64,000 bases of DNA from Candidatus Moraniibacteriota bacterium (GCA_013334575.1 JAAXXG010000002.1:69377-133376); one strand, 5' to 3'; shown: positions 3,608-54,816, counted from the stretch's first letter. Notes: a model not told the origin generated them from the letters alone. Numbers and translations are program-made.

Positions 3608-4825
3608 CTAGAACCGGACCGGAATCGCAAGTTCCTTTCCATCCCGAAGAACGAGAAGCGATGCCTCGTCCCCCTTCGAATGCCCGCCGATCGCGACCGA
3701 AAGCGGATTGTCCAGATTGATTTCCTTCCCGTCCACCGCGATAACGATATCCCCGAAACGGAGCCCGGCCTTCGCAGCCGGAGATCCGGCGAGAACCGAA
3801 AGTCCGGTCTTTCCCGACGGCGAATAGATAAGCGCGCCGCGATCGCGGCCGGAAGCCCCATCCCCGACCGCCGAGGCCTTCGTGAGCGTAAGGTAATACG
3901 CGCCAAGCGAGGCGCGATCCGACAGTTTTCCGGCGACGGCAAGCGAAAGAGTGTCTCGGACGACGTTCGAAGGAAGCAGGAAATGCCGTTCCTTCCCGTC
4001 GAAGACGACGCTCCCGAACAGTCCGACCATCTCGCCGCGAAAATTCACCGCCGGACCGCCAAGATAGGGGCTGGGATCCGCTATGTCCGCTTCAAAAACG
4101 CCCTCCCATTTCTCGGACGAGGCCACGGTCTTCCCGGACAGGTTGAACAGCTTGTTCCGGTTCGAAAGCACGCCGATCGAAAACCGGTTCTGATATTCCT
4201 CGTACGCGTTCCCGATGGCGACGAGCTTCTTTCCCGGTGCCGAATCGTCGGAATTCGCGAGTGCGATCGCCGGAAATCCCGTTCCGTCGATACGAAGGAA
4301 CGAGAGGTTCGTCAGACGGTCGTACCCGAGAAACTTCGCTTCGTGATCGGAGCCGTCATAGAGAAGCACATGGAAAGACGATCCGGGATACGGAACCTGA
4401 GCGGACTCCGAGGGGACGTCGTCCCGCTGGGAAGGGTCGCCGTACGTCGCGACGACGCCGTCGTTCGTAAGGATGACACCGGTACGGCTGCGCGACTCAC
4501 GGACGGACGAAGAAGTGCCGTTCGGGAGTGATATGACGATATTGACCACCGCCGTCGCGGGCTGCGAAACGATCGTCTCCACGGAATCGTCTTCGCGGAC
4601 GACCATCTGTTCCTTGCGCTCGATGACCATGGTGCTCCCGGCGACGTCCCGAAACAGCTCCATGCGCGACAGTCCCGGAAACGACGCGACCAGGGACGGC
4701 ACGACGTGTCCGCGAAAATAGACACCGCCCGATCCGCCGATCACGAACACCGAGACGACGAACGCGAGCCATTTCGCGAGCGTCTTCAATTTCTCCTTCC
4801 CGAACATGTTCCGTATCTTTCCCAT
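3608..4825 (-). CDS. HtrA/DegP-like trypsin-fold protein with PDZ domain, predicted catalytically inactive
   Basis: N-terminal TM helix, an S1C-like core (VAIGNAYEE, YDRLTNLSFLRIDG) and a C-terminal PDZ-like part (GLRFGDIVIAVDGKEI). Triad positions read TNDGVV (His>Gly), NLSFLRI (Asp>Asn) and PYLGGP (Ser>Leu). Confidence 0.6.
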   Translation of the reverse strand: MGKIRNMFGKEKLKTLAKWLAFVVSVFVIGGSGGVYFRGHVVPSLVASFPGLSRMELFRDVAGSTMVIERKEQMVVREDDSVETIVSQPATAVVNIVISLPNGTSSSVRESRSRTGVILTNDGVVATYGDPSQRDDVPSESAQVPYPGSSFHVLLYDGSDHEAKFLGYDRLTNLSFLRIDGTGFPAIALANSDDSAPGKKLVAIGNAYEEYQNRFSIGVLSNRNKLFNLSGKTVASSEKWEGVFEADIADPSPYLGGPAVNFRGEMVGLFGSVVFDGKERHFLLPSNVVRDTLSLAVAGKLSDRASLGAYYLTLTKASAVGDGASGRDRGALIYSPSGKTGLSVLAGSPAAKAGLRFGDIVIAVDGKEINLDNPLSVAIGGHSKGDEASLLVLRDGKELAIPVRF

Positions 4826-9503: not shown

Positions 9504-9617
9504 AGCCGTGAAGAATCAAGGATTACGAACCGGGAACGAAAGCCTCCATTCCGTATGATTCTCGCTTCCCTTTTTCCCGATCCTTCTTCGGCTCCATTCT
9601 ATACCGAAAAACAAAAA

Positions 9618-9644
9618 TTAGCAATCTCATATAGAGAGTGCTAA
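9618..9644 (-). promoter_or_regulatory. CIRCE-like inverted repeat (HrcA operator) upstream of clpB
   Basis: TTAGCAATC-N9-GAGTGCTAA about 115 bp upstream of the clpB start. One mismatch to the CIRCE consensus TTAGCACTC-N9-GAGTGCTAA. Confidence 0.7.
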
Positions 9645-9850
9645 TCCCGTCAATCCGATCTGCGCGATACATTTTACGGAAATTTACTTTCCCAAGCGAT
9701 TCTTCTGCCTGAATTTCCGCCCCATATCCTCACGTTCTATATTTCCAAAATCGAACGGATGTCTCGTATCGAACGATTCTTGACAGGCGAAGCAGGATGG
9801 CCGAGGATGCGAATGAACGTCTTCGCTCACCTTAAAAACAAGGAGTCCTT

Positions 9851-26834: not shown

Positions 26835-26861
26835 TTAGCAATCTCTTTAAGAGAGTGCTAA
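26835..26861 (-). promoter_or_regulatory. CIRCE-like inverted repeat (HrcA operator) upstream of dnaJ
   Basis: TTAGCAATC-N9-GAGTGCTAA about 45 bp upstream of the dnaJ start. Same variant arms as the clpB copy. Confidence 0.7.
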
Positions 26862-30713: not shown

Positions 30714-31406
30714 CTATCGCAACAGGTTCCGGTTCACGTTCTCCGGAACCGAATAGAAGACCGGTTTGAAACTCATGCGGTGAATCGGACACGCCCCGAG
30801 ACGACGCAGGGCGTCCATATGCTCCTTGGTCCCGTATCCCTTGTGTTTCGCGAACCCGTACGCCGGATAGAGCGCGTCGTATTCGAGCATCATCCGGTCG
30901 CGTGTCACCTTGGCGACGATCGACGCGGCCGCGATCGACCGTACGCTCGCGTCCCCTCCGACGACCGTCTCCTGCCGCACCGAGAGATTCGGAATCATCT
31001 GATTCCCGTCGACCAGAAGCAGAAGGTCGTCCGTCGCAAGACCGGTTTCCTCCGCTTTCCGCCGAAAGTCGGACAAGGCCTCCTTCATGGCGAGGAACGT
31101 CGCCTCCAGGATATTCATCCGGTCGATCGTCTCGGCGGAAACGATTCCGACCCCCACCACGAAACGGTCCCGTACGAAAGCGAGCGCCTTCTCACGCTGC
31201 TTCTCGGAGAGTTTCTTCGAATCCCGGACGAGTTTCCATTCCTTTTCCGTTTCCGTATCGATCGGAGCGAAGTCCTGTTTCCTGAACGCGGCGACCGCCG
31301 CCACGACCGGCCCGGCCAACGGCCCGCGCCCAGCCTCGTCGATCCCGACGATACAGGTCGCTCCGTCACGCCGTCGACTCCGTTCAAACTCGAATACGCT
31401 TTCCAT
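30714..31406 (-). CDS. rnhB: ribonuclease HII
   Basis: IVGIDEAGRGPLAGPVV catalytic motif. Start MESVFEF at rc ATG 31404-31406. Confidence 0.85.
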   Translation of the reverse strand: MESVFEFERSRRRDGATCIVGIDEAGRGPLAGPVVAAVAAFRKQDFAPIDTETEKEWKLVRDSKKLSEKQREKALAFVRDRFVVGVGIVSAETIDRMNILEATFLAMKEALSDFRRKAEETGLATDDLLLLVDGNQMIPNLSVRQETVVGGDASVRSIAAASIVAKVTRDRMMLEYDALYPAYGFAKHKGYGTKEHMDALRRLGACPIHRMSFKPVFYSVPENVNRNLLR

Positions 31407-31460
31407 ACAGGGAAGATACGATTTCTCACATTCTACCGTCACCAGTTTCCGAATGCGATA

Positions 31461-31489
31461 TTGACATAGTTATTACAATATTTTATAAC
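31461..31489 (+). promoter_or_regulatory. candidate sigma70-type promoter
   Basis: TTGACA-17 nt-TATAAC upstream of 31536..32207. Confidence 0.35.
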
Positions 31490-31535
31490 AGGAATTCACT
31501 CTTTCCCAATCTTTCCCAACCAAAATCATCCGACC

Positions 31536-32207
31536 ATGCCGTTCAAAGAATACCTTATTGACCGGTCACTGCTCCCGGAGCCGTATTCCACGGCACAAAA
31601 AGCGGAAACGTACGATTGCATCGTTCCGCAGGCGTACAGCAGAAACGGCTACCCGAATTCGGCGCTCCACGAGATCCACTGCGAGAGGGTCGAGCACGGA
31701 TCCGATATCGCCATGTTCCAGTGGTTGCAAGAACAAGCCTTCGAACCCGGCCAGCCAAACCGGTTCATCTCGGAGTCCTGTTATCAGGCAGCGGAGCTCC
31801 TCGGCCGGCACGTTCCGGTCATCGGGCAGTGGGAGGTCATGTTCGCCCTCTGGAAAGCGTATCCGCAATGGTACGAGTCCAATACGGACGCTCTGGTCGC
31901 CATCTGGCCGGCGGAATGCGGCAGGCAAAATACCTACGAGCTTCTCCTGGAGGCGAGGGAGGTCTGCAAGACACGAAACGTATCCGTGCCGCTCATCCCC
32001 GCCGCACCGCAGCATACGCCAAGGACGTTCTTCCTCGCGAAGAAGATCTTCGGCACCTCGCCGGCGGTCGTAAAACGGTATCCGGATGAAGATCCGAATC
32101 ATTGGTACGACCCCAAATCGGTCCAATGGCAGACCCGATCGGAGAGGCTCTGGCTCCTCTACGAGTCACTCTCCCGGATCCACCATCACCTGTTCGGATG
32201 GCTCTGA
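31536..32207 (+). CDS. hypothetical protein
   Basis: 223-aa Trp-rich ORF with no recognisable motifs. Followed by a terminator. Confidence 0.4.
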   Translation: MPFKEYLIDRSLLPEPYSTAQKAETYDCIVPQAYSRNGYPNSALHEIHCERVEHGSDIAMFQWLQEQAFEPGQPNRFISESCYQAAELLGRHVPVIGQWEVMFALWKAYPQWYESNTDALVAIWPAECGRQNTYELLLEAREVCKTRNVSVPLIPAAPQHTPRTFFLAKKIFGTSPAVVKRYPDEDPNHWYDPKSVQWQTRSERLWLLYESLSRIHHHLFGWL

Positions 32208-35500: not shown

Positions 35501-36098
35501 TCCGGTCCGAGACCTCGAGACGCTGCCTGACGGCGCCCAGGTCCGCATAGGCGGCGTGGTCGCGACGGTCCGCAAGATCCTCTCCAAGAACGGACAGCCG
35601 ATGTTCTTCGTCGGGGTCGAGGACCTCACCGGCCGGATCGAGGTCGTCGTCTTCCCCCGGGTCGCCGCCGAGACCGAATCGCTCTGGGTCGAGGACAGCC
35701 TCGTCATCGTGGACGGGAAGGTGAACCGCAAGGACGGTATGACCAAGGTCATGGCCGATACCGGCAGCCGCCTTGACGAGACGGAGATAGCCCGATACCG
35801 TTCGATCAAGCTCACGAGGAAGCGCCACGAACGCCCGAGGGCGGAATCTTCCGCGACCGGTCAGGAGAAGGCCGCCACGCCTCCGGAACGTCGCTACACG
35901 CTCGTCCTCGACGAGGCATCGGCATCGGAAGCGCTCAACCGTCTCTCCGAGGAGCTCGGCCGACTCCCGAAAGGCGAGGACCGCATCTTCCTCCGAGTCG
36001 CCGGAAAACTGATCCGGACCGCCTACGCCGTAACGCTCGACGACGCGGCAAAGGACCGCCTCGCCCGGATTCCCGGAGCGCGGAGTGCCGAAGGATAG
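32541..36098 (+). CDS. dnaE: DNA polymerase III alpha subunit
   Basis: PHP domain N-terminus (HLHVRSHYSLL), polymerase core and OB fold. 1185 aa from MSDFVHLH. Confidence 0.9.
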   Translation: MSDFVHLHVRSHYSLLNALPKIEGLIAEAKKYGMDALALTDTSNMYGAVEFYVRCKDAGLKAIIGTELHVVKDHTSRTPSADDRPRNTIVLLATNETGYHNLLELVSKAQLDGFYYKARVDKNLLRQHHEGLIALSGNMTGEIPANLIYDNYEAAKAAAIDYRDIFGEDNFFLELGPNIEYESQATVNAGLRQIHEETGIPLVAASDVTYLRPEDRDTHDILLCIQNNWTVAQENRPRMTHLDLSFRSPEEMEILFRDYPDAIANTRRIADRCDLKIKLGETQLPHFDVPEGLTADSYLRQLCEEGLVKRYGTTDVDQTHRQRLDYELDVIEKTGFASYFLIVADFVNWAKKNGVVVGPGRGSAAGSFVAYLTEITNIDPIKYDLLFERFLNPERISMPDVDMDFADDRRDAVLEYVRQRYGRDHVAQIITFGTMAAKAAIRDTGRALGFPYAFCDQISKLIPMFTSLSKAVEEVPDLKALYDGNPDARRIIDTAKKLEGNARHASVHACGVVITKDPVTAYSPLQKVAGHGDAAVTQYASQSKLSAVEKIGLLKMDFLGLKNLTIIQNTVRIIRALGKFPDLAERLGIDPEKGSAADVMDRIPLDDEATYRLLQEARTTGVFQLESNGMKRYLKQLKPTVFEDIVAMVALYRPGPMEWIPDFIDGKHGRKVVEYLHPKLEPILRNTYGVAVYQEQVMQIARDLAGFTLGEADVLRKAMGKKIKELIAEQREKFIERAVQEGVQKKIAEQVFAFIEPFAGYGFNRSHAACYALVGYQTAFLKAHYPAEFMAALLTSDQNDTDRIAIEVEETRQIGVEVLPPDVNESFEDFAVIKGDDEKERIRFGLNAIKNVGRPAAEEIVRVRKQDGPFASMEDLLERVRVKDLNKKSLEALSKVGALDRFGERNLLLENLDAIISFAKNIDKIKDTHQDSLFGGMTLEKPVIRFTPPGRPATKKERLSWEKQLIGLYITDHPVSDYEDYLREIARPVRDLETLPDGAQVRIGGVVATVRKILSKNGQPMFFVGVEDLTGRIEVVVFPRVAAETESLWVEDSLVIVDGKVNRKDGMTKVMADTGSRLDETEIARYRSIKLTRKRHERPRAESSATGQEKAATPPERRYTLVLDEASASEALNRLSEELGRLPKGEDRIFLRVAGKLIRTAYAVTLDDAAKDRLARIPGARSAEG

Positions 36099-36123
36099 GC
36101 CGCCGGAAACGCAAGACGAACCT

Positions 36124-37050
36124 ATGGAAACGATCGTCGTGGTCGGACCGACCGCGTCGGGAAAATCCGACTATGCCATCTCGCTCGCGCGCGAGACCGG
36201 CGGAGAGATCGTCTCCGCCGATTCGCGGCAGGTCTACCGCGGGATGAATATCGGCACCGGGAAGGTTCCCAGAGATACGTTCAATGTAGAGACGGGGCAT
36301 ACCCCGTCTCTACGGAATGACATTTCGTATATCTCCGGCGGTATCCGGCATCACCTTCTCGACGTCGCCTCGCCGAAACGGACCTATACCGTCACGCATT
36401 TCCTCCGTGATGCCAGGGCGGCGATCGACGACATACGGAAACGCGGCAAAACGCCCATCATCTGCGGCGGGACGAACTTCTGGATAGAGGCGCTCGTCTC
36501 CGATACCTCGTTTCCCGCGGTCAGACCCGATCCGCCCCTCCGAAAAACGCTCGGCCGACTCACCGCGCCCGAACTCTTCACGATGCTCGAGGAAAAGGAC
36601 CCCGACCGCGCGAAGACGATCGACCGTCACAATAAGGTCCGGCTCATCCGGGCACTCGAGATCGTCGCGACGCTCGGTAAAGTACCGACAAGCGGAACAA
36701 GGACTCAAGAATCAGGAATGAAGCGGGATGAGAAATTCCGATTCATCGGAGTCGATATCTCACGAGAACAGTTACGTGAAAATATCGTGAGACGACTCGA
36801 TAAGCGGCTCCGGGAAGGGATGGTCGACGAAGTACGACGGCTCCGCGAGGAAGAAGGAATCTCCTGGAAGCGCCTCGAGGGATTTGGACTCGAGTACCGC
36901 TGGTGCGCGCTGTTCCTTCAAGGAAAGATAACGGAAACGGAACTGCGCGACGGTATCACCCGCGACAGCCTCTCCTACGCCAAGCGGCAAATGACGTTTC
37001 TTCGGAAACTGGAACGAAACGGGATACGGATAGAATGGAGGAGAATTTGA
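36124..37050 (+). CDS. miaA: tRNA dimethylallyltransferase
   Basis: P-loop GPTASGKS, DSRQVYRGMNIGTGK and HHLLD motifs. Contains a 28-nt palindromic element in-frame at 36286-36313. Confidence 0.85.
   Translation: METIVVVGPTASGKSDYAISLARETGGEIVSADSRQVYRGMNIGTGKVPRDTFNVETGHTPSLRNDISYISGGIRHHLLDVASPKRTYTVTHFLRDARAAIDDIRKRGKTPIICGGTNFWIEALVSDTSFPAVRPDPPLRKTLGRLTAPELFTMLEEKDPDRAKTIDRHNKVRLIRALEIVATLGKVPTSGTRTQESGMKRDEKFRFIGVDISREQLRENIVRRLDKRLREGMVDEVRRLREEEGISWKRLEGFGLEYRWCALFLQGKITETELRDGITRDSLSYAKRQMTFLRKLERNGIRIEWRRI
36286..36313. repeat. perfect 28-nt palindromic element (REP-like), copy 1, inside the miaA coding sequence
   Basis: gtagagacggggcataccccgtctctac is translated in frame as VETGHTPSL. 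Confidence 0.75.
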
Positions 37051-37063
37051 AATATCGAATTGG

Positions 37064-37100
37064 ACAGTAAAGACGCCTCAGTGGGGCGTCTTTTATGTTT
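37064..37100. terminator. bidirectional terminator / REP-like hairpin between miaA and the RAYT gene
   Basis: aagacgcc tcagtgg ggcgtctt stem followed by TTTATGTTTGATTT. The stem core gacgcc/ggcgtc resembles copy 3 of the palindromic element. Confidence 0.5.
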
Positions 37101-37632
37101 GATTTATCGGATTCTCCTCATCCGTATCCCATTCCCGAGGATTGATACGGATATATTCCTGGATCAACCGTAGAGACTCCTCGTTCCGGATAATATGATC
37201 ATGGAATCGCGATTGCCATGAGAATCCGGATTCGGCATGCGACGCCCGGATTCTTTTCGTACAAACAGATTTGAACGACCCGACAATCGTCGCCAAAGTC
37301 GGTCGTTTTCGTGGTTCACTGTTTTCCGTAGAGACGGGGCATGCCCCGTCTCTACACGGAAGGATCTCGATGATTCCGTGAACATGATTCGGCATTACAA
37401 CAAATTCATCCGTTCGGATATCTCGAAAATGGTCCGGGATACTACCCCAGCAATCCCGGACGATTTCCCCGATTCCGGATAATGTCATCTCCCCGTTTTC
37501 GATATCGCCGAACCAGAGACACCGATCCGCGGCACAGATGGTCACGAAATATGCGCCAGGTTGGGAATAATCATATCCGGGTAAGCGTGATGATCGAATC
37601 CTGTATTTGCCTTTGTAGTTATCCGCTACCAT
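37093..37632 (-). CDS. REP-associated tyrosine transposase (RAYT, IS200/Y1 family)
   Basis: YRIRSSRLPGYDYSQPGAYFVTICAADR; HuH motif VVMPNHVHGIIEI; C-terminal WQSRFHDHIIRNEESLRLIQEYIRINPREW. Flanked by REP-like hairpins. Confidence 0.75.
   Translation of the reverse strand: MVADNYKGKYRIRSSRLPGYDYSQPGAYFVTICAADRCLWFGDIENGEMTLSGIGEIVRDCWGSIPDHFRDIRTDEFVVMPNHVHGIIEILPCRDGACPVSTENSEPRKRPTLATIVGSFKSVCTKRIRASHAESGFSWQSRFHDHIIRNEESLRLIQEYIRINPREWDTDEENPINQT
37327..37354. repeat. 28-nt palindromic element, copy 2, inside the RAYT coding sequence
   Basis: gtagagacggggcatgccccgtctctac, read on the minus strand as CRDGACPVST. Confidence 0.75.
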
Positions 37633-37667
37633 AAACGTACATACATCATATCCGATTCCCTATAACG

Positions 37668-37696
37668 GTAGAGACGCCCCGGCGGGGCGTCTCTAC
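37668..37696. repeat. palindromic element, variant copy 3, upstream of the RAYT gene
   Basis: gtagagacgcccc ggc ggggcgtctctac has the same outer arms with an inverted inner core. Confidence 0.7.
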
Positions 37697-37721
37697 GGGA
37701 AAAGAAACAAATCAGAAAACC

Positions 37722-37795
37722 CTATCCTTTCATCTTCCCCTTCAGGATCTCCGCCACGACCTCCGGGTTGGCCTTCCCCTTCGTTTCCTTTCGGC
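37722..37795 (-). pseudogene. tandem remnant of the gatB 3' end
   Basis: The rc encodes KETKGKANPEVVAEILKGKMKG*, against KETKGKANPQVVSEILRKRLEA* for the true GatB C-terminus a few nt upstream. Confidence 0.5.
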
Positions 37796-37818
37796 CTGAG
37801 GCTGATCCGCGGTCGGAT

Positions 37819-39300
37819 CTACGCCTCCAGTCTTTTCCGGAGTATCTCGGAAACCACCTGCGGATTCGCTTTTCCTTTGGTTTCCTTCATCACCTGGCCG
37901 ATGAGGAACTGAAACGCGTTCTGCTTTCCGGCATGGTAATCCTCGACAGACTTCGCGTTCGCGGCAAGAATCGCGTCGACGATGCCTTCGAGCTCCCCCG
38001 TGTCGCTCACCTGCGCGAGATTGAGCCGGTCGATGATATGCGACGGATCGTTATCCTCGCCCTTGAGCATCTCACCGAGGACCGTCTGAGCTGCGCTCGA
38101 ATTGATTTTTCCATCGGCAATTATCACGATGAATTCCGCATAGTTCTCGGGAGTGATTCCCGACTCACTGATGGTTTTTCCGGATTCGACCAGTCGTTTT
38201 CGCAATTCGGTCACGATATAGTTCGCGGCGAGCCGGATCGCCTTCTCCTCCCCGGCGACCAACTCCTTGGAATCTTTCTTTTCTCCGATCTCGCTCACGA
38301 CCGCTTCGAAATAATCCGCGGTCGGCTTCTCGGCGGTGATCACCGAGACCGCTTCAGACGACAGTCCGTATTGCTTCGCAAACCGTTCTTCCTTGGCTGC
38401 CGGCAGTTCGGGAATGGTCAGACGGAGCGCCTCGATGTCCGCTTCCGAAAATGAGAAAGGCGGGATGTCCGGCTCGGGGAAATAGCGGTAATCGTGCGCA
38501 GACTCCTTCTTGCGCTGCGAAACGGTTTTCTGTCCGTTCTCGTCCCATCCGCGCGTCTCCTGTTCGATCTTCTCGCCCGATTCGAGCGCCTTCGTCTGTC
38601 GGGCGATCTCGTATTCGATCGCCCCGGCAACCGCCTTGAACGAGTTGAGGTTCTTCACCTCGACCTTGGTACCGGACAGCCGGTCCTCACCTTCCGCATA
38701 CAGCGAGATATTCGCCTCGCAGCGCATCTGTCCCTTTTCCATGTCCGCGTCCGAAATGTCGAGATACCGGAGGATCTGCCGAAGCTTCTGGCAGAAGAGC
38801 CGCGCGTCGGCGGCGTTGTCGATATCCGGCTCGGTCACGAGTTCCATGAGCGGCACCCCCGAACGGTTCAGGTCGACCAGGGTATGTTTGGTACCGGCGG
38901 GATGATACAGCTTGCCGGTGTCCTCCTCCATGTGGATCCGGGTGATGCCGACCGTCTTGCCCTCGCGGATCGTGAGCGCCCCCTTCCCGCAGAACGGTTC
39001 GTCGTACTGCGAGATCTGGTAGCCTTTCGGAAGATCGGGATAGAAATAGTTCTTGCGGTCGAACTTCGAGTGCCTGGCGAGTTCGCAGCCGAGCGCGAGT
39101 CCGGCCCGCTGCACCGATTCGATTGCCAGCCGGTTCGGAGTCGGAAGCGCTCCGGGCTGTGCGGTACAGACCGGGCAGATGTGTACGTTCGGTTCGGCCT
39201 CCTGTCCGAGACCGTTCCTGCACGAGCAGAACATCTTGGACTCGGTCCGAAGCTCGACATGGACCTCCATACCGATGACGGGAGTGTATTTCATAATCAT
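37819..39300 (-). CDS. gatB: Asp-tRNA(Asn)/Glu-tRNA(Gln) amidotransferase subunit B
   Basis: MIMKYTPVIGMEVHVEL N-terminus and C-terminal GatB/YqeY tail. The upstream ORF extension is Arg-rich read-through. Confidence 0.9.
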   Translation of the reverse strand: MIMKYTPVIGMEVHVELRTESKMFCSCRNGLGQEAEPNVHICPVCTAQPGALPTPNRLAIESVQRAGLALGCELARHSKFDRKNYFYPDLPKGYQISQYDEPFCGKGALTIREGKTVGITRIHMEEDTGKLYHPAGTKHTLVDLNRSGVPLMELVTEPDIDNAADARLFCQKLRQILRYLDISDADMEKGQMRCEANISLYAEGEDRLSGTKVEVKNLNSFKAVAGAIEYEIARQTKALESGEKIEQETRGWDENGQKTVSQRKKESAHDYRYFPEPDIPPFSFSEADIEALRLTIPELPAAKEERFAKQYGLSSEAVSVITAEKPTADYFEAVVSEIGEKKDSKELVAGEEKAIRLAANYIVTELRKRLVESGKTISESGITPENYAEFIVIIADGKINSSAAQTVLGEMLKGEDNDPSHIIDRLNLAQVSDTGELEGIVDAILAANAKSVEDYHAGKQNAFQFLIGQVMKETKGKANPQVVSEILRKRLEA

Positions 39301-39337
39301 ATGACAGATAGCACTGAACGGATGGCGGGGAACGGAG

Positions 39338-39763
39338 TCACTGCCTCCCCGTACTCCCGAAATGCCCCTCTCCGCGTATCGTAGCATCGAGCTCCGAAAC
39401 CTCGCAAACCTCCGGAAGCGCGATCGGCACGACGAGCATCTGGGCGATCCGCTCTCCCGACGCGACCTCATACGGCTCATCCGAGGTGTTGAGCATGATA
39501 ACCTTCCATTCCCCGCGATAGCCGGAATCGATGACGCCGCCGAGATTCGTGATCCCGTGCTTCGCCGCGAGCCCGGACCGGTCCATGATCAGTCCGACGT
39601 ACCCCTCCGGGATCGCGATGGCGACCCCCGTCGGTACGATGCGCCGCTCTCCGGGACCGAGGGCGGATCCCTCCGTCGCGTACAGGTCGAGACCGGCATC
39701 GCCCGGGTGAGCGCGCATCGGTAACACCGCATCCGGATGGAGTCGTTTTATTTCCAGTTTCAT
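39338..39763 (-). CDS. dut: dUTP diphosphatase
   Basis: MKLEIKRLHPDAVLP ... AGLDLYA ... GVIDSGYRGE motifs. 141 aa. 4-nt overlap with tmk. Confidence 0.85.
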   Translation of the reverse strand: MKLEIKRLHPDAVLPMRAHPGDAGLDLYATEGSALGPGERRIVPTGVAIAIPEGYVGLIMDRSGLAAKHGITNLGGVIDSGYRGEWKVIMLNTSDEPYEVASGERIAQMLVVPIALPEVCEVSELDATIRGEGHFGSTGRQ

Positions 39764-43914: not shown

Positions 43915-44015
43915 GACGACAGCGGGAAGGTTTTTTCGTTTCAAGCCCCTCCTTTCCGATTTCATCAAAAAAATGAGGCTCATATAAGCCTCATTATTTG
44001 ATCGTTTCGGATTTC
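43915..44015. repeat. intergenic repeat element A (about 100 nt, terminator-containing)
   Basis: Near-identical to B at 44677..44774. Contains a hairpin aatgaggctcatataagcctcatt with an A-run before and a T-rich run after, acting as a bidirectional terminator. Confidence 0.7.
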
Positions 44016-44132
44016 TGACAAAATGAAAGCGTTTGCCTCAGGCAACACCCGGAATTTTGACAGCACCGAAAGAACCCTATAACATGCCAAAAAAAGCCCT
44101 TTCCCATCAACCGAACGATTCCCGGAGGCAAC

Positions 44133-44624
44133 ATGCGAACGCAACGAAGCTATTATCTCGCCGCATTTCTTGGCGCGCTATATGCGCCGATTCTCGGGAC
44201 GGTCTACCCGGACGCCTTGTCGATCGAAGTACCGCTTAGTGTATCCGTAACAGTTGCGGCCGTCTTTATACTGGTCTTCTCCACGCTCCTTCGAAGAAAC
44301 GGTTTCCGCTCCGCGCTTGGGGTAGCGGGTTACCAACTGGCATACCTGACAACTCTACTGTCGCTCGCGGTACAATATCTTAAACATGGAACCGGAGCAG
44401 TCGCTCCCGCCTTCTTCGGAACATTCGCCCATTCTTCCGTTACTGTTCTTTCCTCGATTCAAGACGAGAAATTCCTACTGGTATTTATCTGGACGGCTGT
44501 CGCCATGAACAATGCCATGGTGTACCTTCATCCGCCAATCCACGTATTGTGGACCGTCGCCCTCATGTTCTACGTCCTCTACGGACTGTCCGAGGAGCCC
44601 GAGACGATCGCTCCGGAATCGTAG
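44133..44624 (+). CDS. small integral membrane protein
   Basis: 163 aa with 5 hydrophobic helices. Flanked by repeats A and B. Confidence 0.45.
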   Translation: MRTQRSYYLAAFLGALYAPILGTVYPDALSIEVPLSVSVTVAAVFILVFSTLLRRNGFRSALGVAGYQLAYLTTLLSLAVQYLKHGTGAVAPAFFGTFAHSSVTVLSSIQDEKFLLVFIWTAVAMNNAMVYLHPPIHVLWTVALMFYVLYGLSEEPETIAPES

Positions 44625-44676
44625 GGCCTGTGCCGAATCAAGAATGAAGCCTCCCCGCTCGAATCATCGCAAGATG

Positions 44677-44774
44677 ACGACGGGGAGGTTTTTTCGTTTC
44701 AAACCCCTCCTTTCCGATTTCATCAAAAAAATGAGGCTCATATAAGCCTCATTATTTGATCGTTTCGGATTTCG
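44677..44774. repeat. intergenic repeat element B
   Basis: Same element as A, with an additional upstream stem cctccccg ... cggggagg followed by TTTTTT. Confidence 0.7.
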
Positions 44775-44864
44775 GGCAAAATCTGAACCTATGAACGTCC
44801 CTCGTGATCCGGTAAGAAAGAAGCCCGTGTTCTTGGAACACGGGCCTCGAAAAGAACATACCTG

Positions 44865-46029
44865 TCAGAGGTTCGTCATGATGGCCTCCCCCATCGCCTC
44901 GGTACCGAGAATCATATCGCGGTTATCAACCAGCCTCGCCAAATCCGCGGTACGATATCCCGCCAAAAGCGTCTTCTCCACCGCCTTCTCGATAGCCCCC
45001 GCACCAACCTTCGCTCCGATATGACGAAGCATCATCGCAGCCGTCAGGATCCGACCGATAGGATTCACCTTATCCTTCCCCTTAAGGTCGCAGGCCGTTC
45101 CCGCTCCGCTCTCGAACATTGCGGAACCGGTTTCCGGATTCACGGCGGAACTGCACATCATACCAAGACTTCCCAGCATGCCAGCAGCGCCGTCGGAGAG
45201 AATGTCGCCGTGTTCGTTTCCGCACATGATGACTCCCGCAAGCTTCATCGGCATGCCGAGCAGTGCGTTCGCCGCATCGACATACAGATGGGAAAGCGGG
45301 ACATCGGGGAATTCTGCCTTTCCGATCTCGGTCGCCATTTTCCGCCACAGTACGTAGCGAGCCATCACGTTCGTCTTATCGATCGAGATGACCGGAAGAC
45401 CGCGCTCCCGGGCATACCAAAACACGGCACGCATGTACTTCAGGAGCGTCTCGCGACGATAATAGGCAAGTTCAACGACCGCCTCCTCATCCCCGACGAC
45501 TTCCTTCTTCAACTTGATCATCAACTGGTCCCGCACTCCGCAACCGATATGATCATACAGATCCGAAGTGCCAAAGTAACTGTCCTCGAGCAGCATCCGG
45601 ACGAAAACCTGTACTATACCATCCGATGGGATATTTTCCGGCCGCACGAGACACAGATGATCCAGCGACTTGTGATAGACGACCGGCCGGAAGTTGAGCA
45701 ACAAGCCCATTTCCTTGCGCAGGGCAAGTAATGCCCGTGCTTCCGGCATCATCTCCGGATGTTTCACGCCGAGCGTCTTATCAATCTCAGTATCCCCCAC
45801 TCCTCCGAAGAAGAGTGTCCCGATCTCCACTGCTCGTTTCAACGACTCGGCAGGAAGCGTATCGCCGAATTCCCTGAAGGCGTTCCACCCCATCGGCGTT
45901 TTTTCGAAGACGATCTCGATACCGTCCTTTTTCGCGGCTTCGATGGCGACCGCACATGCGGCCGCCATCATTTCCGGAGCCGCCCCGTCGCCCGTCACGA
46001 GCGCGATTCGAACTTCCCTTCCTTCTTTC
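44865..46029 (-). CDS. isocitrate/3-isopropylmalate dehydrogenase family (LeuB-like)
   Basis: IALVTGDGAAPEMM, a GSLGMMCSSAV region and a dehydrogenase C-terminus. Start assigned to TTG at 46027-46029, preceded by AAAGGAGGG, to avoid a 115-nt overlap with the upstream gene. Confidence 0.7.
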
Positions 46030-46051
46030 AAGAGTCCCTCCTTTTGTTGAT

Positions 46052-48019
46052 TTACAGCTTTCCTTCCGCCTGCAATCCGGCGGCTGTCTCGAACATGAAC
46101 GGGATGACTCCGCCTTTCCTGAGCAGCTCCTTCTGCAGCCAGGTAAGCTTGAACGGAATCTCCCACATGTCCTCACCCGCCGTACCGACGCGGACCACAC
46201 CCTCGTCCGGAAGCACTTCGACCGTGTCCGGTCGCCTCTCACGCAGGTCATTCATGACCTCGTCCGGGAGTTCGACACACAGCAGGCCGTTCGCAAACAT
46301 GCTGGCACTGAAAATACGTGCGAAGCTCGACGCGATAACGCATGTGATTCCAGCCTCGAAAAGGGACCAAGGAGCATGTTCACGCGACGAACCGCAACCG
46401 AAGTTCTTACCAGCGACCAGTACGCTCGACCGGAACAGCCGTTCCTGTTCCTCCCCGGTCAGGTCGACCCCTTCAAGACAGTGCTGTCCAAGCCCGGTTT
46501 TCACGGACGTCGTCAGGTACTTCGCCGGGATGATGACATCCGTATCGACATTGTCCCCTCTCTTCCCCTGGAGATACAAGACTTTCCCCGAGAACTCCGG
46601 CTTGACCGTGATGCGCGTGGCCCGATGCAGTACGCCGTAGTCCGGCCGACTCAACTCGGTCACCCCATCCCAGTCTGTGAGATTGAGCGGATGACCTTCT
46701 TCGGACATGCTCGCGATATCGTCGAGCACACGTCCACACAGCTCCGGACTCGGCACCGCGACGCTTCCCGTCATGGCCGACAACGCCGCCACCGCCGGAG
46801 AACAGAGATGCACCATACCGCCCTTACCCATCCTTCCCTTGAAGTTCCGGTTACTGGTCGAAATGCACACCTCTCCGGGAGCGAGGACGCCTCCGCTCAT
46901 ACCCAGGCACGGTCCGCACGTCGCTGACATGACGACGCATCCCGCGGCCATGAATACATCGATGAGACCCTCATACAAAGCTCGCCGATAGATATGCTGC
47001 GTCGCCGGAATAACGATACACCGCGTACCGTCAGCGATCCTGCCGCCGAAATCACGCATGATGCCGGCCGCGATGCGCAGGTCTTCCAGGCGTCCGTTCG
47101 TGCAGGATCCGATGAACACCTGCTGAAACGGCATACCCTCCAGATCGGACGCTGGCACGACATCGGCCGGGGTATACTCCACCGTGATGAGCGGCTGCCT
47201 GTCAGTCACGTCGATCGTGATGACCTGATTATACTCGGCATTCGGGTCGCTGTTCCACGCCAGCAATTCCTCTTCCTCATATCCCGCCGACTCGATGAGC
47301 GGCCGCAGATATTCGATGGTCTTGTCGTCCACCGCCACCATACCGGATGTCGCCCCGGCCTCGACCACCATGTTCGTCATGGTCATCCTCGCCTCCATGC
47401 TGAGCGCCTCCACGACCGGCCCGCCGAATTCGATGACCGCATTCGTCGCGCCGGCAACTCCCATCACCTCGATCAGCATCAGGATGAGGTCCTTGGCGAA
47501 CACGTTCGCCGGGAGTGTCCCGACATACTCGACGCGGATCACCCGCTGAGGCTGACAGAACCAGAGCTCGGTCGAAACGGCCGCCATCATCTCCGAAGTC
47601 CCGACTCCCGCGGTAAGCGCACCGAACGCGCCACCGGTACAGGTATGACTGTCACCCATGACGGCAATCTGCCCCGGGAACAGCCACCCGCTCTCGGGAA
47701 AAAGCGCGTGACAAACGCCCCCCTGCCCCGCATCGCGGAATTCGATGCCGTGTTCCTTACACCATTTTCGCAGCGTATCGGCCTGAAACGCCGTCGCCTC
47801 GTCGTTGGACGGGCAGACGTGGTCGATCGTCGCTTTTATCCTGTTCGGATCGAATACCACGTCACAGCCGCGGGCCTTCATGTCCACGATACCAGGAGGC
47901 GTCGTGATTTCATGACAGAAGACCTGATCCACTTTCAGCACCATGGTCCCGTCCGGAAGCGTTTTCAGCAAATGCGCATCGACGATTTTCTGATACGCCG
48001 TTTTTCCTCGTTTCTGCAT
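46052..48019 (-). CDS. aconitase-family hydro-lyase, fused large+small subunit (LeuC/LeuD-like)
   Basis: 655 aa. Fe-S cluster cysteines in GSCTNGR and TCGPCLG contexts, and a LeuD-like swivel domain at the C-terminus. Confidence 0.8.
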   Translation of the reverse strand: MQKRGKTAYQKIVDAHLLKTLPDGTMVLKVDQVFCHEITTPPGIVDMKARGCDVVFDPNRIKATIDHVCPSNDEATAFQADTLRKWCKEHGIEFRDAGQGGVCHALFPESGWLFPGQIAVMGDSHTCTGGAFGALTAGVGTSEMMAAVSTELWFCQPQRVIRVEYVGTLPANVFAKDLILMLIEVMGVAGATNAVIEFGGPVVEALSMEARMTMTNMVVEAGATSGMVAVDDKTIEYLRPLIESAGYEEEELLAWNSDPNAEYNQVITIDVTDRQPLITVEYTPADVVPASDLEGMPFQQVFIGSCTNGRLEDLRIAAGIMRDFGGRIADGTRCIVIPATQHIYRRALYEGLIDVFMAAGCVVMSATCGPCLGMSGGVLAPGEVCISTSNRNFKGRMGKGGMVHLCSPAVAALSAMTGSVAVPSPELCGRVLDDIASMSEEGHPLNLTDWDGVTELSRPDYGVLHRATRITVKPEFSGKVLYLQGKRGDNVDTDVIIPAKYLTTSVKTGLGQHCLEGVDLTGEEQERLFRSSVLVAGKNFGCGSSREHAPWSLFEAGITCVIASSFARIFSASMFANGLLCVELPDEVMNDLRERRPDTVEVLPDEGVVRVGTAGEDMWEIPFKLTWLQKELLRKGGVIPFMFETAAGLQAEGKL

Positions 48020-48182
48020 GTTCGTCCCCTGTTTTCGTTGAGTGAATATACTATTTGTTAAACAAAACGGATCCTACAGTGCAGGATCTCGTGCCATTCC
48101 GATATACCAGGAAACGACTCGTATAGCAAGCGGATAATGACATTTACGACTTCAAACCGTCTTTTGGCCACAATCTTCCCAG

Positions 48183-53703: not shown

Positions 53704-53927
53704 AGGAGTCTTCGGTTATGGGGATCTGCCGACTCCCTCCGGCACCCATTGTACGGGAAAGGCCGATAAAAAGGAACCTTGGCAGAATTCCATCCCCGTG
53801 TCATCCCGAGCGCAGTCGAGGGATCCACGGATATATCAGGACCAGAGTCGATTCTCCTGGCAGATTCCTCCACTCGAAGACTCTCCGGCATTCGCCGGAC
53901 TCCGGGTCGGAATGACAAGACAAAAAA

Positions 53928-53993
53928 ACAGGCCCCGAGAAGGGCCTGCTTCTGCATTTCGTGCTGTCGGAAACTAGGAGAGCTTCACCGTGA
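53928..53993 (-). repeat. 66-nt direct repeat: duplicate of the rplA 3' end plus its terminator hairpin
   Basis: About 92% identical to 54751..54816. Includes rc ...VKLS* and the aggccc ... gggcct hairpin with a T-run. Confidence 0.65.
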
Positions 53994-54540: not shown

Positions 54541-54750
54541 GGTATCCCCCTTTAGCACTTCGTGCCTTAATTTATAGAGTTATTAAACACGAAATGACTC
54601 TAGCATTAAATCCATATAATGTCAAGTCTCTTCACATCAACACAGAAGTCATCTTCTTGTCGTCCAAGCGAGGGCAGGGCCTTTCCGTGCCGAGTAGAAG
54701 ATTCCCGCCTTCGCGGGAATGACCGATAGAGAAGGCTCGACGATACGAAA

Positions 54751-54816
54751 ACAGGCCCCGGGAAGGGCCTGTTTCGGCATTTCGTGCCGTCAGAAACTAG
54801 GAGAGCTTCACCGTGA
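54751..54816 (-). repeat. 66-nt direct repeat (true rplA 3' end and terminator)
   Basis: Overlaps the last codons and stop of rplA. Hairpin aggcccttcccggggcct followed by GTTTTCG. Confidence 0.65.

Follow-up and report, generated by a model that had tools for sequence, protein, structure and literature searches.

The stretch of DNA analysed here, in the following referred to as the window, comprises 64,000 nucleotides of a Candidatus Moraniibacteriota genome assembly (GCA_013334575.1, JAAXXG010000002.1:69377-133376). A gene for a putative REP-associated tyrosine transposase (RAYT, also named TnpAREP) is located at 37093..37632 on the minus strand, encoding 179 amino acids followed by a stop codon according to the listing of open reading frames (ORFs). 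It lies between gatB (37819..39480, minus strand) and miaA, the gene of tRNA dimethylallyltransferase (36085..37050, plus strand), to which it is convergent. Palindromes resembling repetitive extragenic palindromes (REPs) are found upstream of the RAYT gene, within it and at its stop codon, and a further one is carried in frame by miaA. This arrangement very probably is a REPtron, that is, a RAYT gene with its cognate REPs.

The RAYT gene and its protein

The translation of the RAYT ORF holds PGYDYSQPGAYFVTI, HVHGII, WQSRFHDHIIRNEE and YIRINP, i.e. all motifs by which a preliminary description of this DNA had recognized a RAYT. The HuH motif H83-V84-H85 (37378-37386, minus strand) stands in the context P81-N82-H83-V84-H85, which fits NH[IFV]H, and the WQ motif is formed by W139-Q140. 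The predicted catalytic tyrosine is Tyr160 (37153-37155, minus strand), and N164 (37141-37143, minus strand) is the putative third metal ligand. In an alignment of 38 diverse homologues the residues H83, H85, W139, Q140, Y160 and N164 are invariant; the tyrosine motif reads Y160-I-R-I-N164-P in the window and YIxxNP in the consensus of these homologues.

Searches with hidden Markov models, proposed in the preliminary description as a check of this assignment, gave a divided answer. Pfam Y1_Tnp was matched with 23.8 bits at a cut-off of 23, and REP_Tyr_transpos (NF047646), though the best-scoring NCBIfam family for this ORF, reached 63 bits with a curated cut-off of 80. The latter match consists of two stretches with the REP-encoded loop (see below) between them. 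The NCBIfam model transpos_IS200 scored 13.4 bits with a cut-off of 55. The only relevant sequence match in the PDB is Escherichia coli TnpAREP (4ER8), where WQSRFHDHIIRN..EYIRINP of the RAYT aligns on WQPRFWEHAIRN..DYIYINP of the E. coli protein, so that Y160 corresponds to Y115 and N164 to N119; the roles of these residues are taken from PMC6006769.

An AlphaFold2 model of the protein displays a predicted local distance difference test score (pLDDT) of 88.7. Residues ~91-112 are modelled as coil with a pLDDT of ~62-66, preceded by a strand (83-90) and followed by a helix (113-131), and the hypervariable stretch of the homologue alignment coincides with this coil. Foldseek places 4er8_A, TnpAREP bound to REP, at the top of the PDB matches (E 4e-7), followed by the ISDra2, IS608 and IS200 transposases. 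On sequence and modelled fold, the ORF is predicted to encode a HuH/Y1 enzyme that is intact and belongs to the TnpAREP type, in agreement with the preliminary description. No second RAYT was found anywhere else in the window.

REP palindromes around and inside the gene

The upstream palindrome is a double-foot REP of type B, (CG)GTAGAGACGCCCCGGCGGGGCGTCTCTAC(GG), at 37666..37698 in the spacer between gatB and the RAYT gene. Its core (37668-37696) has arms of 14 bp and a loop of 1 nt, or 16 bp when extended to 37666-37698, and ends 36 nt ahead of the RAYT ATG. Folded as DNA, this hairpin reaches -15.5 kcal/mol with a z-score of -5.5. The downstream palindrome (37064..37093) adjoins the RAYT stop codon and is a decayed, type-B-like REP, in which the hairpin AAAGACGCC..GGCGTCTTT at 37069-37093 retains 11 pairs (-10.1 kcal/mol, z -6.3). 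It shares 82% identity over 28 nt with the upstream REP, and neither foot is intact, GTAG having changed to GTAA and CTAC to TTAT. Read on the plus strand, with the T-rich tail that follows, it resembles an intrinsic terminator serving the convergent miaA.

A third palindrome, of type A (GTAGAGACGGGGCATGCCCCGTCTCTAC), is located inside the RAYT gene at 37328..37355, in frame and after the HuH motif (-16.4 kcal/mol, z -8.3). It encodes C93-T102 (CRDGACPVST) between the HuH and tyrosine motifs, in the loop leading from the HuH strand to the next helix, and this segment sits in the low-confidence coil 91-112 of the model. The REP in miaA (36286..36313, plus strand) is also of type A with one loop mismatch; it is in frame and reads VETGHTPSL, and with its flanks (38 nt) it is 92% complementary to the intragenic RAYT copy. 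The bracketing of the gene by related palindromes had been noted in the preliminary description and is borne out, with a perfect copy upstream and a decayed one downstream; the two full copies within genes, of which the one in the RAYT gene is the most characteristic feature of the locus, had been missed.

The cognate REPs are perfect double-foot palindromes of 28-29 nt, GTAGAGACG...CGTCTCTAC, with two inner variants, A = GGGGCATGCCCC and B = CCCCGSCGGGG. The three intact copies and the decayed one all lie within 1.4 kb, and the remaining ~62 kb are free of GTAG-type REP copies. Three instances of GTAGAGAC-N(4-30)-GTCTCTAC are present in the window, where 100 shuffles gave 0, and all four hairpins, folded as DNA, yield -10 to -16 kcal/mol with z-scores of -5.5 to -8.3. 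These palindromes are therefore more than chance. A half-site CCGTAGAGACTCCTCG at 37168-37183, in the 3' part of the RAYT gene, pairs with an arm of the upstream REP; some 20 chance occurrences of such 9-mers with one mismatch are present in the window, and it was not counted as a REP.

Chromosomal position and comparison across species

The order tmk-dut-gatB-RAYT-miaA-dnaE is also found in three further loci: L202 (GCA_013336155.1), which belongs to the same species and shows 97-99% nucleotide identity to the window; L001, a metagenome contig of the Joint Genome Institute, with a RAYT 68% identical to that of the window; and L203, with a RAYT 64% identical. Three Moranbacteria species thus keep the gene between gatB and miaA, a constancy that speaks for vertical inheritance and fits a domesticated RAYT.

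The upstream REP has the identical sequence at the same position in L001 (8133-8165) and in L202. The window and L202 carry variant B upstream, variant A internally and a decayed B-like copy downstream. L001 has variant B both upstream and internally, together with an extra A copy at the junction of miaA and dnaE. In L203, variant A occupies the upstream and internal sites, and a decayed copy similar to that of the window, directly after the RAYT stop codon, is joined by a B copy. Variants A and B thus stand at different positions in different species, and the REPs at these fixed sites are replaced over time.

The RAYT gene with its spacers (37051-37818, 768 nt) differs from L202 by 1 nucleotide, and the near-identical block as a whole (36910-38037, likewise 1 difference) reaches into both miaA and gatB. 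The idea of a RAYT cassette moving as a unit between strains was rejected, as this block is not bounded by the hairpins and the divergence forms a mosaic, as in homologous recombination. Patches diverged from L202 by 8-30% lie at 36372-36909, 38038-38388, 39019-39250 and 31111-32110 within a background of 99-100% identity, the patch in gatB (38038-38388) holding about 106 differences in 350 nt. This mosaic suggests frequent homologous recombination between strains, or a mixing of strains in the metagenome-assembled genomes (MAGs).

A remnant that duplicates the 3' end of gatB lies outside the gene at 37723-37800 (minus strand), in the space from the gatB stop codon (37819) to the upstream REP. 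It reads RKETKGKANPEVVAEILKGKMKG followed by a stop, the real GatB C-terminus being KETKGKANPQVVSEILRKRLEA followed by a stop, with ~74% nucleotide identity, and it is found in L202 too. In L001 the gatB stop codon is just 27 nt from the REP; hence the REP-proximal gatB end may be the ancestral one.

The in-frame REP in miaA

The MiaA protein of the window is 100% identical to an NCBI protein (P0121), annotated as tRNA dimethylallyltransferase of a Candidatus Moranbacteria MAG; the deposited protein starts at an internal methionine and has 308 amino acids. The REP sits in a variable loop at ~36267-36312 (46 nt), which is absent from solved MiaA structures: the window protein has some 18-20 residues more than the PDB entries 2qgn and 3d3q. 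Among 120 homologues, the REP peptide occurs in the window protein only. The same-species genome L202 carries a different element in this loop, an inverted repeat of 106 nt, and no REP copy. The REP in miaA is therefore strain-specific, and some recent turnover has taken place. Its junction lies in a short patch of raised divergence from L202.

In Moranbacteria and Parcubacteria homologues (P0121-P0240), the MiaA loop flanked by GTGKVxRD and GIRHHLLD is hypervariable; it encodes peptides typical of varied elements, palindromic or with inverted repeats, e.g. HPELVEGS...DSSTRRLARND, ISNFQF, TTDN...LSVVS and YHINDDRQLCDT. The appearance is that of a site in an essential gene on which small mobile palindromes have landed repeatedly. 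A literature search for in-frame palindromic insertions in proteins of the candidate phyla radiation returned nothing relevant.

Family-wide survey of homologous loci

In order to place the locus in its family, 82 loci were compared, namely 80 fetched homologous loci from genomes of many phyla, L001 and the window. An intragenic hairpin was defined as a near-perfect stem of at least 9 bp (usually 14-22 bp) directly after the HuH motif, and it was taken as recurrent if its 20-nt core was found at another site of that locus with no more than 2 mismatches. Such a hairpin is present in 66 of the 82 loci (the window counted); of the remaining 16, 14 have no hairpin of at least 9 bp and 2 lack the search motif. 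In nearly all of 120 close homologues of the protein, the peptide after MPNHVHGII is a translated GTAG...CTAC palindrome, e.g. CRDGACPVST, VETPRRGVST, VGATHASPL, RRDEAMPRLY, RDAINRVST or VETPNLGVST. The phylum distribution of these RAYT homologues is patchy.

More than half of the loci with an intragenic palindrome (37/66) repeat their own palindrome in the same locus, with 1.0 extra copies per locus as compared to 0.026 per cross-locus control pair. This result upholds the proposal of the preliminary description that the gene and its cognate REPs form a REPtron. Relative to the internal copy, most recurrent copies are located ~330-366 nt upstream and ~250-350 nt downstream, at positions just before the start and just after the stop codon; family-wide, upstream copies stand ~20-40 nt ahead of the ATG and downstream copies 1-60 nt past the stop. 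The palindromes of the window, at offsets of -341 and +264 from the internal copy, follow this layout. More than 1 kb from the gene, REP copies are few in the 80 homologous loci. Flanking and intragenic palindromes hence co-vary locus by locus across phyla.

Among the stem pairs in the survey, 859 of 883 are Watson-Crick pairs, with 5 G:T and 9 A:C pairs among the others. The reading frame of the foot is frame 0 in 28 loci and frame 1 in 12, and the frame that would give TAG is never used. Watson-Crick stems with no excess of G:T pairs, together with the use of either open frame, indicate that the constraint acts on the DNA rather than on the peptide or an RNA structure. A reading of the hairpins at the RNA level was considered and found to be without support, as G:T pairs are not in excess over A:C pairs and an Rfam search gave a single sub-threshold chance match only.

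Some RAYT homologues carry tandem or nested in-frame REPs (L185 at 3834-4279, P0067, P0099, P0019, L002 and L024). L185 holds three GTAGAGACGCCCAATTTGGGCGTCTCTAC copies within one ORF, and P0067 about eight half repeats of the VGATH type. These copies suggest repeated insertion of REP on REP at the intragenic site.

Dispersal of the REP type

A metagenome scan for this REP type yielded at least 126 copies in at least 120 stretches. Among the copies listed, 114 of 126 are in stretches that have no RAYT, and 104 are outside long ORFs. The REP type is thus dispersed, and mostly solitary and extragenic, in metagenomes, which has no bearing on the present genome. The same type is also seen in frame in long non-RAYT ORFs of up to ~1850 amino acids (metagenome contigs L095, L106, L108, L137, L141 and L182).

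For the genome at hand, the preliminary description had proposed active or recent REP proliferation. The window does not support this as stated: three intact copies and a decayed one are all at the RAYT locus, the remaining ~62 kb hold none, the downstream copy has lost its GTAG feet, and low REP copy numbers are published for Group 4 RAYTs; yet the miaA copy is missing from L202, so that some turnover is recent. The count in the window sets a bound that is still compatible with tens of copies per megabase.

Other features of the window

A segment of ~4.1 kb in the window (44016-48175) is absent from L202. It encodes an isocitrate/isopropylmalate dehydrogenase (44865-46166, minus strand) and an aconitase-family protein (46052-48019, minus strand) and is a strain-variable metabolic island. 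Two identical hairpins, AAAAAATGAGGCTCATATAAGCCTCATTATTT, at 43968-43999 and 44726-44757 are located near one edge of it. Two further near-identical hairpin pairs are unrelated to the GTAG REP: one at 9617-9645 and 26835-26861 (ATTAGCAATCTC..GAGAGTGCTAAT-like), the other, terminator-like, at 53926-53951 and 54749-54774 (AAACAGGCCCCG.GAAGGGCCTG).

Comparison with known classes

TnpAY1 subclass 2.4 was defined by Quentin, Siguier, Chandler and Fichant (2018; PMC6006769) and equated with the Group 4 RAYTs of Bertels. According to this account, including its Table 1, the motifs are a HuH of the form NH[IFV]H, WQ and a tyrosine motif YIxNNP; the proteins have a mean length of 194 amino acids with a highly variable insertion between beta3 and alphaC, and there are ~1.5 copies per genome. 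The REPs are described there as canonical long or "double foot" REPs with 5' GT[AG]G and 3' C[TC]AC, and REPs inserted in the tnpAREP gene are reported and read as insertions in a peripheral loop with little impact. For the 16-mers flanking Group 4 RAYTs, Bertels et al. (2017; PMC5581495) give ~14 occurrences per replicon. GTAG REPs, REPtrons and REPs within genes were also treated by Di Nocera et al. (2013; PMC3733652).

Compared with this published description of subclass 2.4, the window locus appears to have every one of the architectural features: a NHVH HuH motif, WQ and YIxxNP in a protein within the range of ~180-195 amino acids that lacks a C-terminal extension, hypervariability in the segment from beta3 to alphaC, double-foot REPs (5' GTAG...CTAC 3') within 1 kb of the gene, and an in-frame REP inside the gene between the HuH and tyrosine motifs. 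The single RAYT in 64 kb and the four local REPs would fit about one gene copy per genome and a low number of REPs. The sole deviation would be YIRINP instead of YIxNNP, Y, I, N and P being in agreement, and the placement draws on motif signature and architecture. The host differs, being a Candidatus Moranbacteria bacterium, where the published passages on this class stress Cyanobacteria, Bacteroidetes and Chlorobia; the window also differs in its downstream REP, decayed to a terminator-like hairpin, and in the extra in-frame copy in miaA. The class of the locus, double-foot REPs and a REP inside the gene were all published in 2018 (PMC6006769).

Escherichia coli TnpAREP and its REPtron (subclass 2.2, Group 2; 4ER8; Ton-Hoang 2012; Messing 2012; PMC3479197) provide the best structural match. 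WQxRFxxHxIRN and YIxINP align, the catalytic tyrosine is kept, and GTAG-footed REPs flank a single-copy gene in both cases, whereas the identity to the window protein is only ~22%. The E. coli REPs are imperfect, bulged and single-foot and are found in hundreds of copies and in bacterial interspersed mosaic elements (BIMEs); those of the window are perfect and symmetric, few and local, and one of them is intragenic. With the TnpA proteins of the IS200/IS605 family (IS608, ISDra2, IS200), the locus shares the HuH/Y1 fold, presumed recognition of a hairpin on single-stranded DNA and a gene flanked by hairpins. It differs from them in the tyrosine motif and in the conservation of its chromosomal position between species; it also lacks tnpB and distinct left and right ends, and the element as a whole is not present in multiple copies.

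Rickettsia palindromic elements (RPEs; Ogata 2000) reportedly lie in frame within genes, RPE-1 being ~100-150 bp long. The insert in the miaA gene of the window is different from RPE-1, consisting of only a 28-nt REP in a 46-nt variable patch, and the same MiaA loop carries many unrelated palindromic elements in related genomes, which also sets it apart from the Rickettsia elements. The case resembles these elements and the intragenic REPs of Di Nocera et al. (2013; PMC3733652) in that a palindromic repeat is in frame and translated, here in the permissive loop of a housekeeping gene, miaA.

Interpretation of the locus

Based on the observed anatomy, fold, conservation of catalytic residues, co-variation, synteny and strain polymorphism, we consider it very likely that the locus is a Candidatus Moranbacteria REPtron whose RAYT is of the TnpAY1 subclass 2.4 / Group 4 type. 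By homology to E. coli TnpAREP, the RAYT gene would encode a small HuH/Y1 endonuclease and strand transferase acting on single-stranded DNA. The enzyme would bind its cognate REP hairpin on a single strand and read the GTAG foot; cleavage beside the REP by Tyr160, with Mg2+ held by H83, H85 and N164, would proceed through a 5'-phosphotyrosine intermediate, and rejoining of the DNA ends may then move or exchange REPs. The unit itself would be immobile, with three fixed REP sites, ~36 nt before the start, in the in-frame surface loop after the HuH strand, and at the stop codon (decayed and terminator-like), at which the A and B variants are swapped between lineages. One REP copy would have entered the permissive miaA loop at a distance of 1 kb from the RAYT gene. 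Toleration of the intragenic copy probably has two reasons: its product is a disordered loop at the periphery of the protein, and the palindrome offers two open frames out of three on either strand. An exchange of REP on REP at existing REPs is in keeping with the concerted evolution of the three copies, with the swapping of variants, and with intragenic copies in tandem or nested form. An effect of the hairpins on RAYT expression may also be envisaged, and a structure in the 5' leader, an internal translation brake and a shared terminator are plausible candidate roles.

Several points weigh against this interpretation. REP_Tyr_transpos stays below its curated cut-off (63 versus 80 bits) and Pfam Y1_Tnp is barely above its own (23.8 versus 23). 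The fourth position of the tyrosine motif is I, not the N of YIxNNP as tabulated for subclass 2.4 in PMC6006769. All four visible REP copies are local, which leaves mobilisation in this genome a conjecture. The proposed mechanism is modelled on E. coli TnpAREP, a subclass 2.2 enzyme with ~22% identity, and we found no biochemistry for subclass 2.4. Finally, the REP-bearing miaA allele may have been imported from another strain by homologous recombination rather than by a fresh RAYT-mediated event.

The confinement of the REPs to the locus, with none in ~62 kb of the window, could also mean that the locus is a domesticated fossil, in which the RAYT is kept for a host function, the REPs are no longer mobilised, and the hairpins serve in regulation (the upstream one as a read-through barrier or as a structure of the 5' untranslated region, the downstream one as a bidirectional terminator, the intragenic one as a brake on translation). 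The loss of both GTAG feet in the downstream copy with its terminator-typical T-tract, the fixed position between gatB and miaA across species, and the low REP copy numbers of Group 4 RAYTs, as reported in PMC5581495, are in line with this, and the identity of the upstream REP in species with RAYT proteins just 68% identical suggests purifying selection on a cis element. However, the ORF is intact with invariant catalytic residues, the A and B variants have exchanged positions among three species, one strain has a REP of its own in miaA, the tandem or nested intragenic REPs in P0067, P0099 and L185 point to continuing REP-on-REP events, and the REP type is widely dispersed in metagenomes at a distance from RAYT genes (114 of 126 among the copies listed have no RAYT in their stretch). 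Such a fossil is possible, though we do not regard it as probable. An autonomous insertion sequence of the IS200/IS605 type, with the hairpins as left and right ends and the whole unit transposing, appears highly improbable. The Y1 HuH fold matches the ISDra2, IS608 and IS200 transposases too, hairpins stand on both sides at short and regular distances from the gene, and the distribution of the family across phyla is patchy; but three species with RAYTs 64-68% identical to the window protein have the gene at one and the same chromosomal site, only one copy is present in the 64 kb, and the ends are identical symmetric palindromes and not a distinct left and right end. The near-identical block shared with L202 also runs beyond the hairpins into both neighbouring genes, and WQ, YIxxNP and the best fold match are those of the TnpAREP type, with transpos_IS200 at 13.4 bits and a cut-off of 55.

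A related question is whether the intragenic REP is a passenger at all. It could be a required cis element, such as an autoregulatory binding site of the RAYT, an mRNA structure, or a protected master copy for flanking and dispersed REPs. The constancy of its site (80% of loci, from many phyla and irrespective of the REP sequence), its concerted evolution with the flanking copies, and its perfection on both strands would all be expected of such an element. On the other hand, this hairpin was not seen in 16 of 82 loci, the loop is short in some clear homologues (e.g. P0060), and a bias of insertion beside existing REPs gives the same pattern with no function involved; Quentin et al., in their account of subclass 2.4 (PMC6006769), also read the insertion as one of little impact. 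We therefore regard a required element as unlikely.

Implications

Under the interpretation as a subclass 2.4 REPtron, the RAYT class is extended to a bacterium of the candidate phyla radiation with a small genome, in which it keeps one chromosomal position across species. Such a conserved position agrees with the view that RAYTs are domesticated enzymes passed on vertically. To the published description, the present data add the co-variation of palindromes locus by locus, their perfection on both strands, and the use of either open frame.

As a more far-reaching idea, which we put forward as a doubtful one, the layout of three REPs (5' leader, intragenic and 3' end) might be a functional, self-maintaining module. 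The intragenic REP would be a protected master or autoregulatory copy, and the RAYT would match all three by REP-on-REP strand exchange and seed essential genes nearby with in-frame REPs at permissive loops. If this were true, the miaA loop of the window would be such a seeded site, polymorphic between strains that are 97-99% identical. With the REP in miaA, the window offers a compact natural case of an essential protein into which selfish palindromes have been written.

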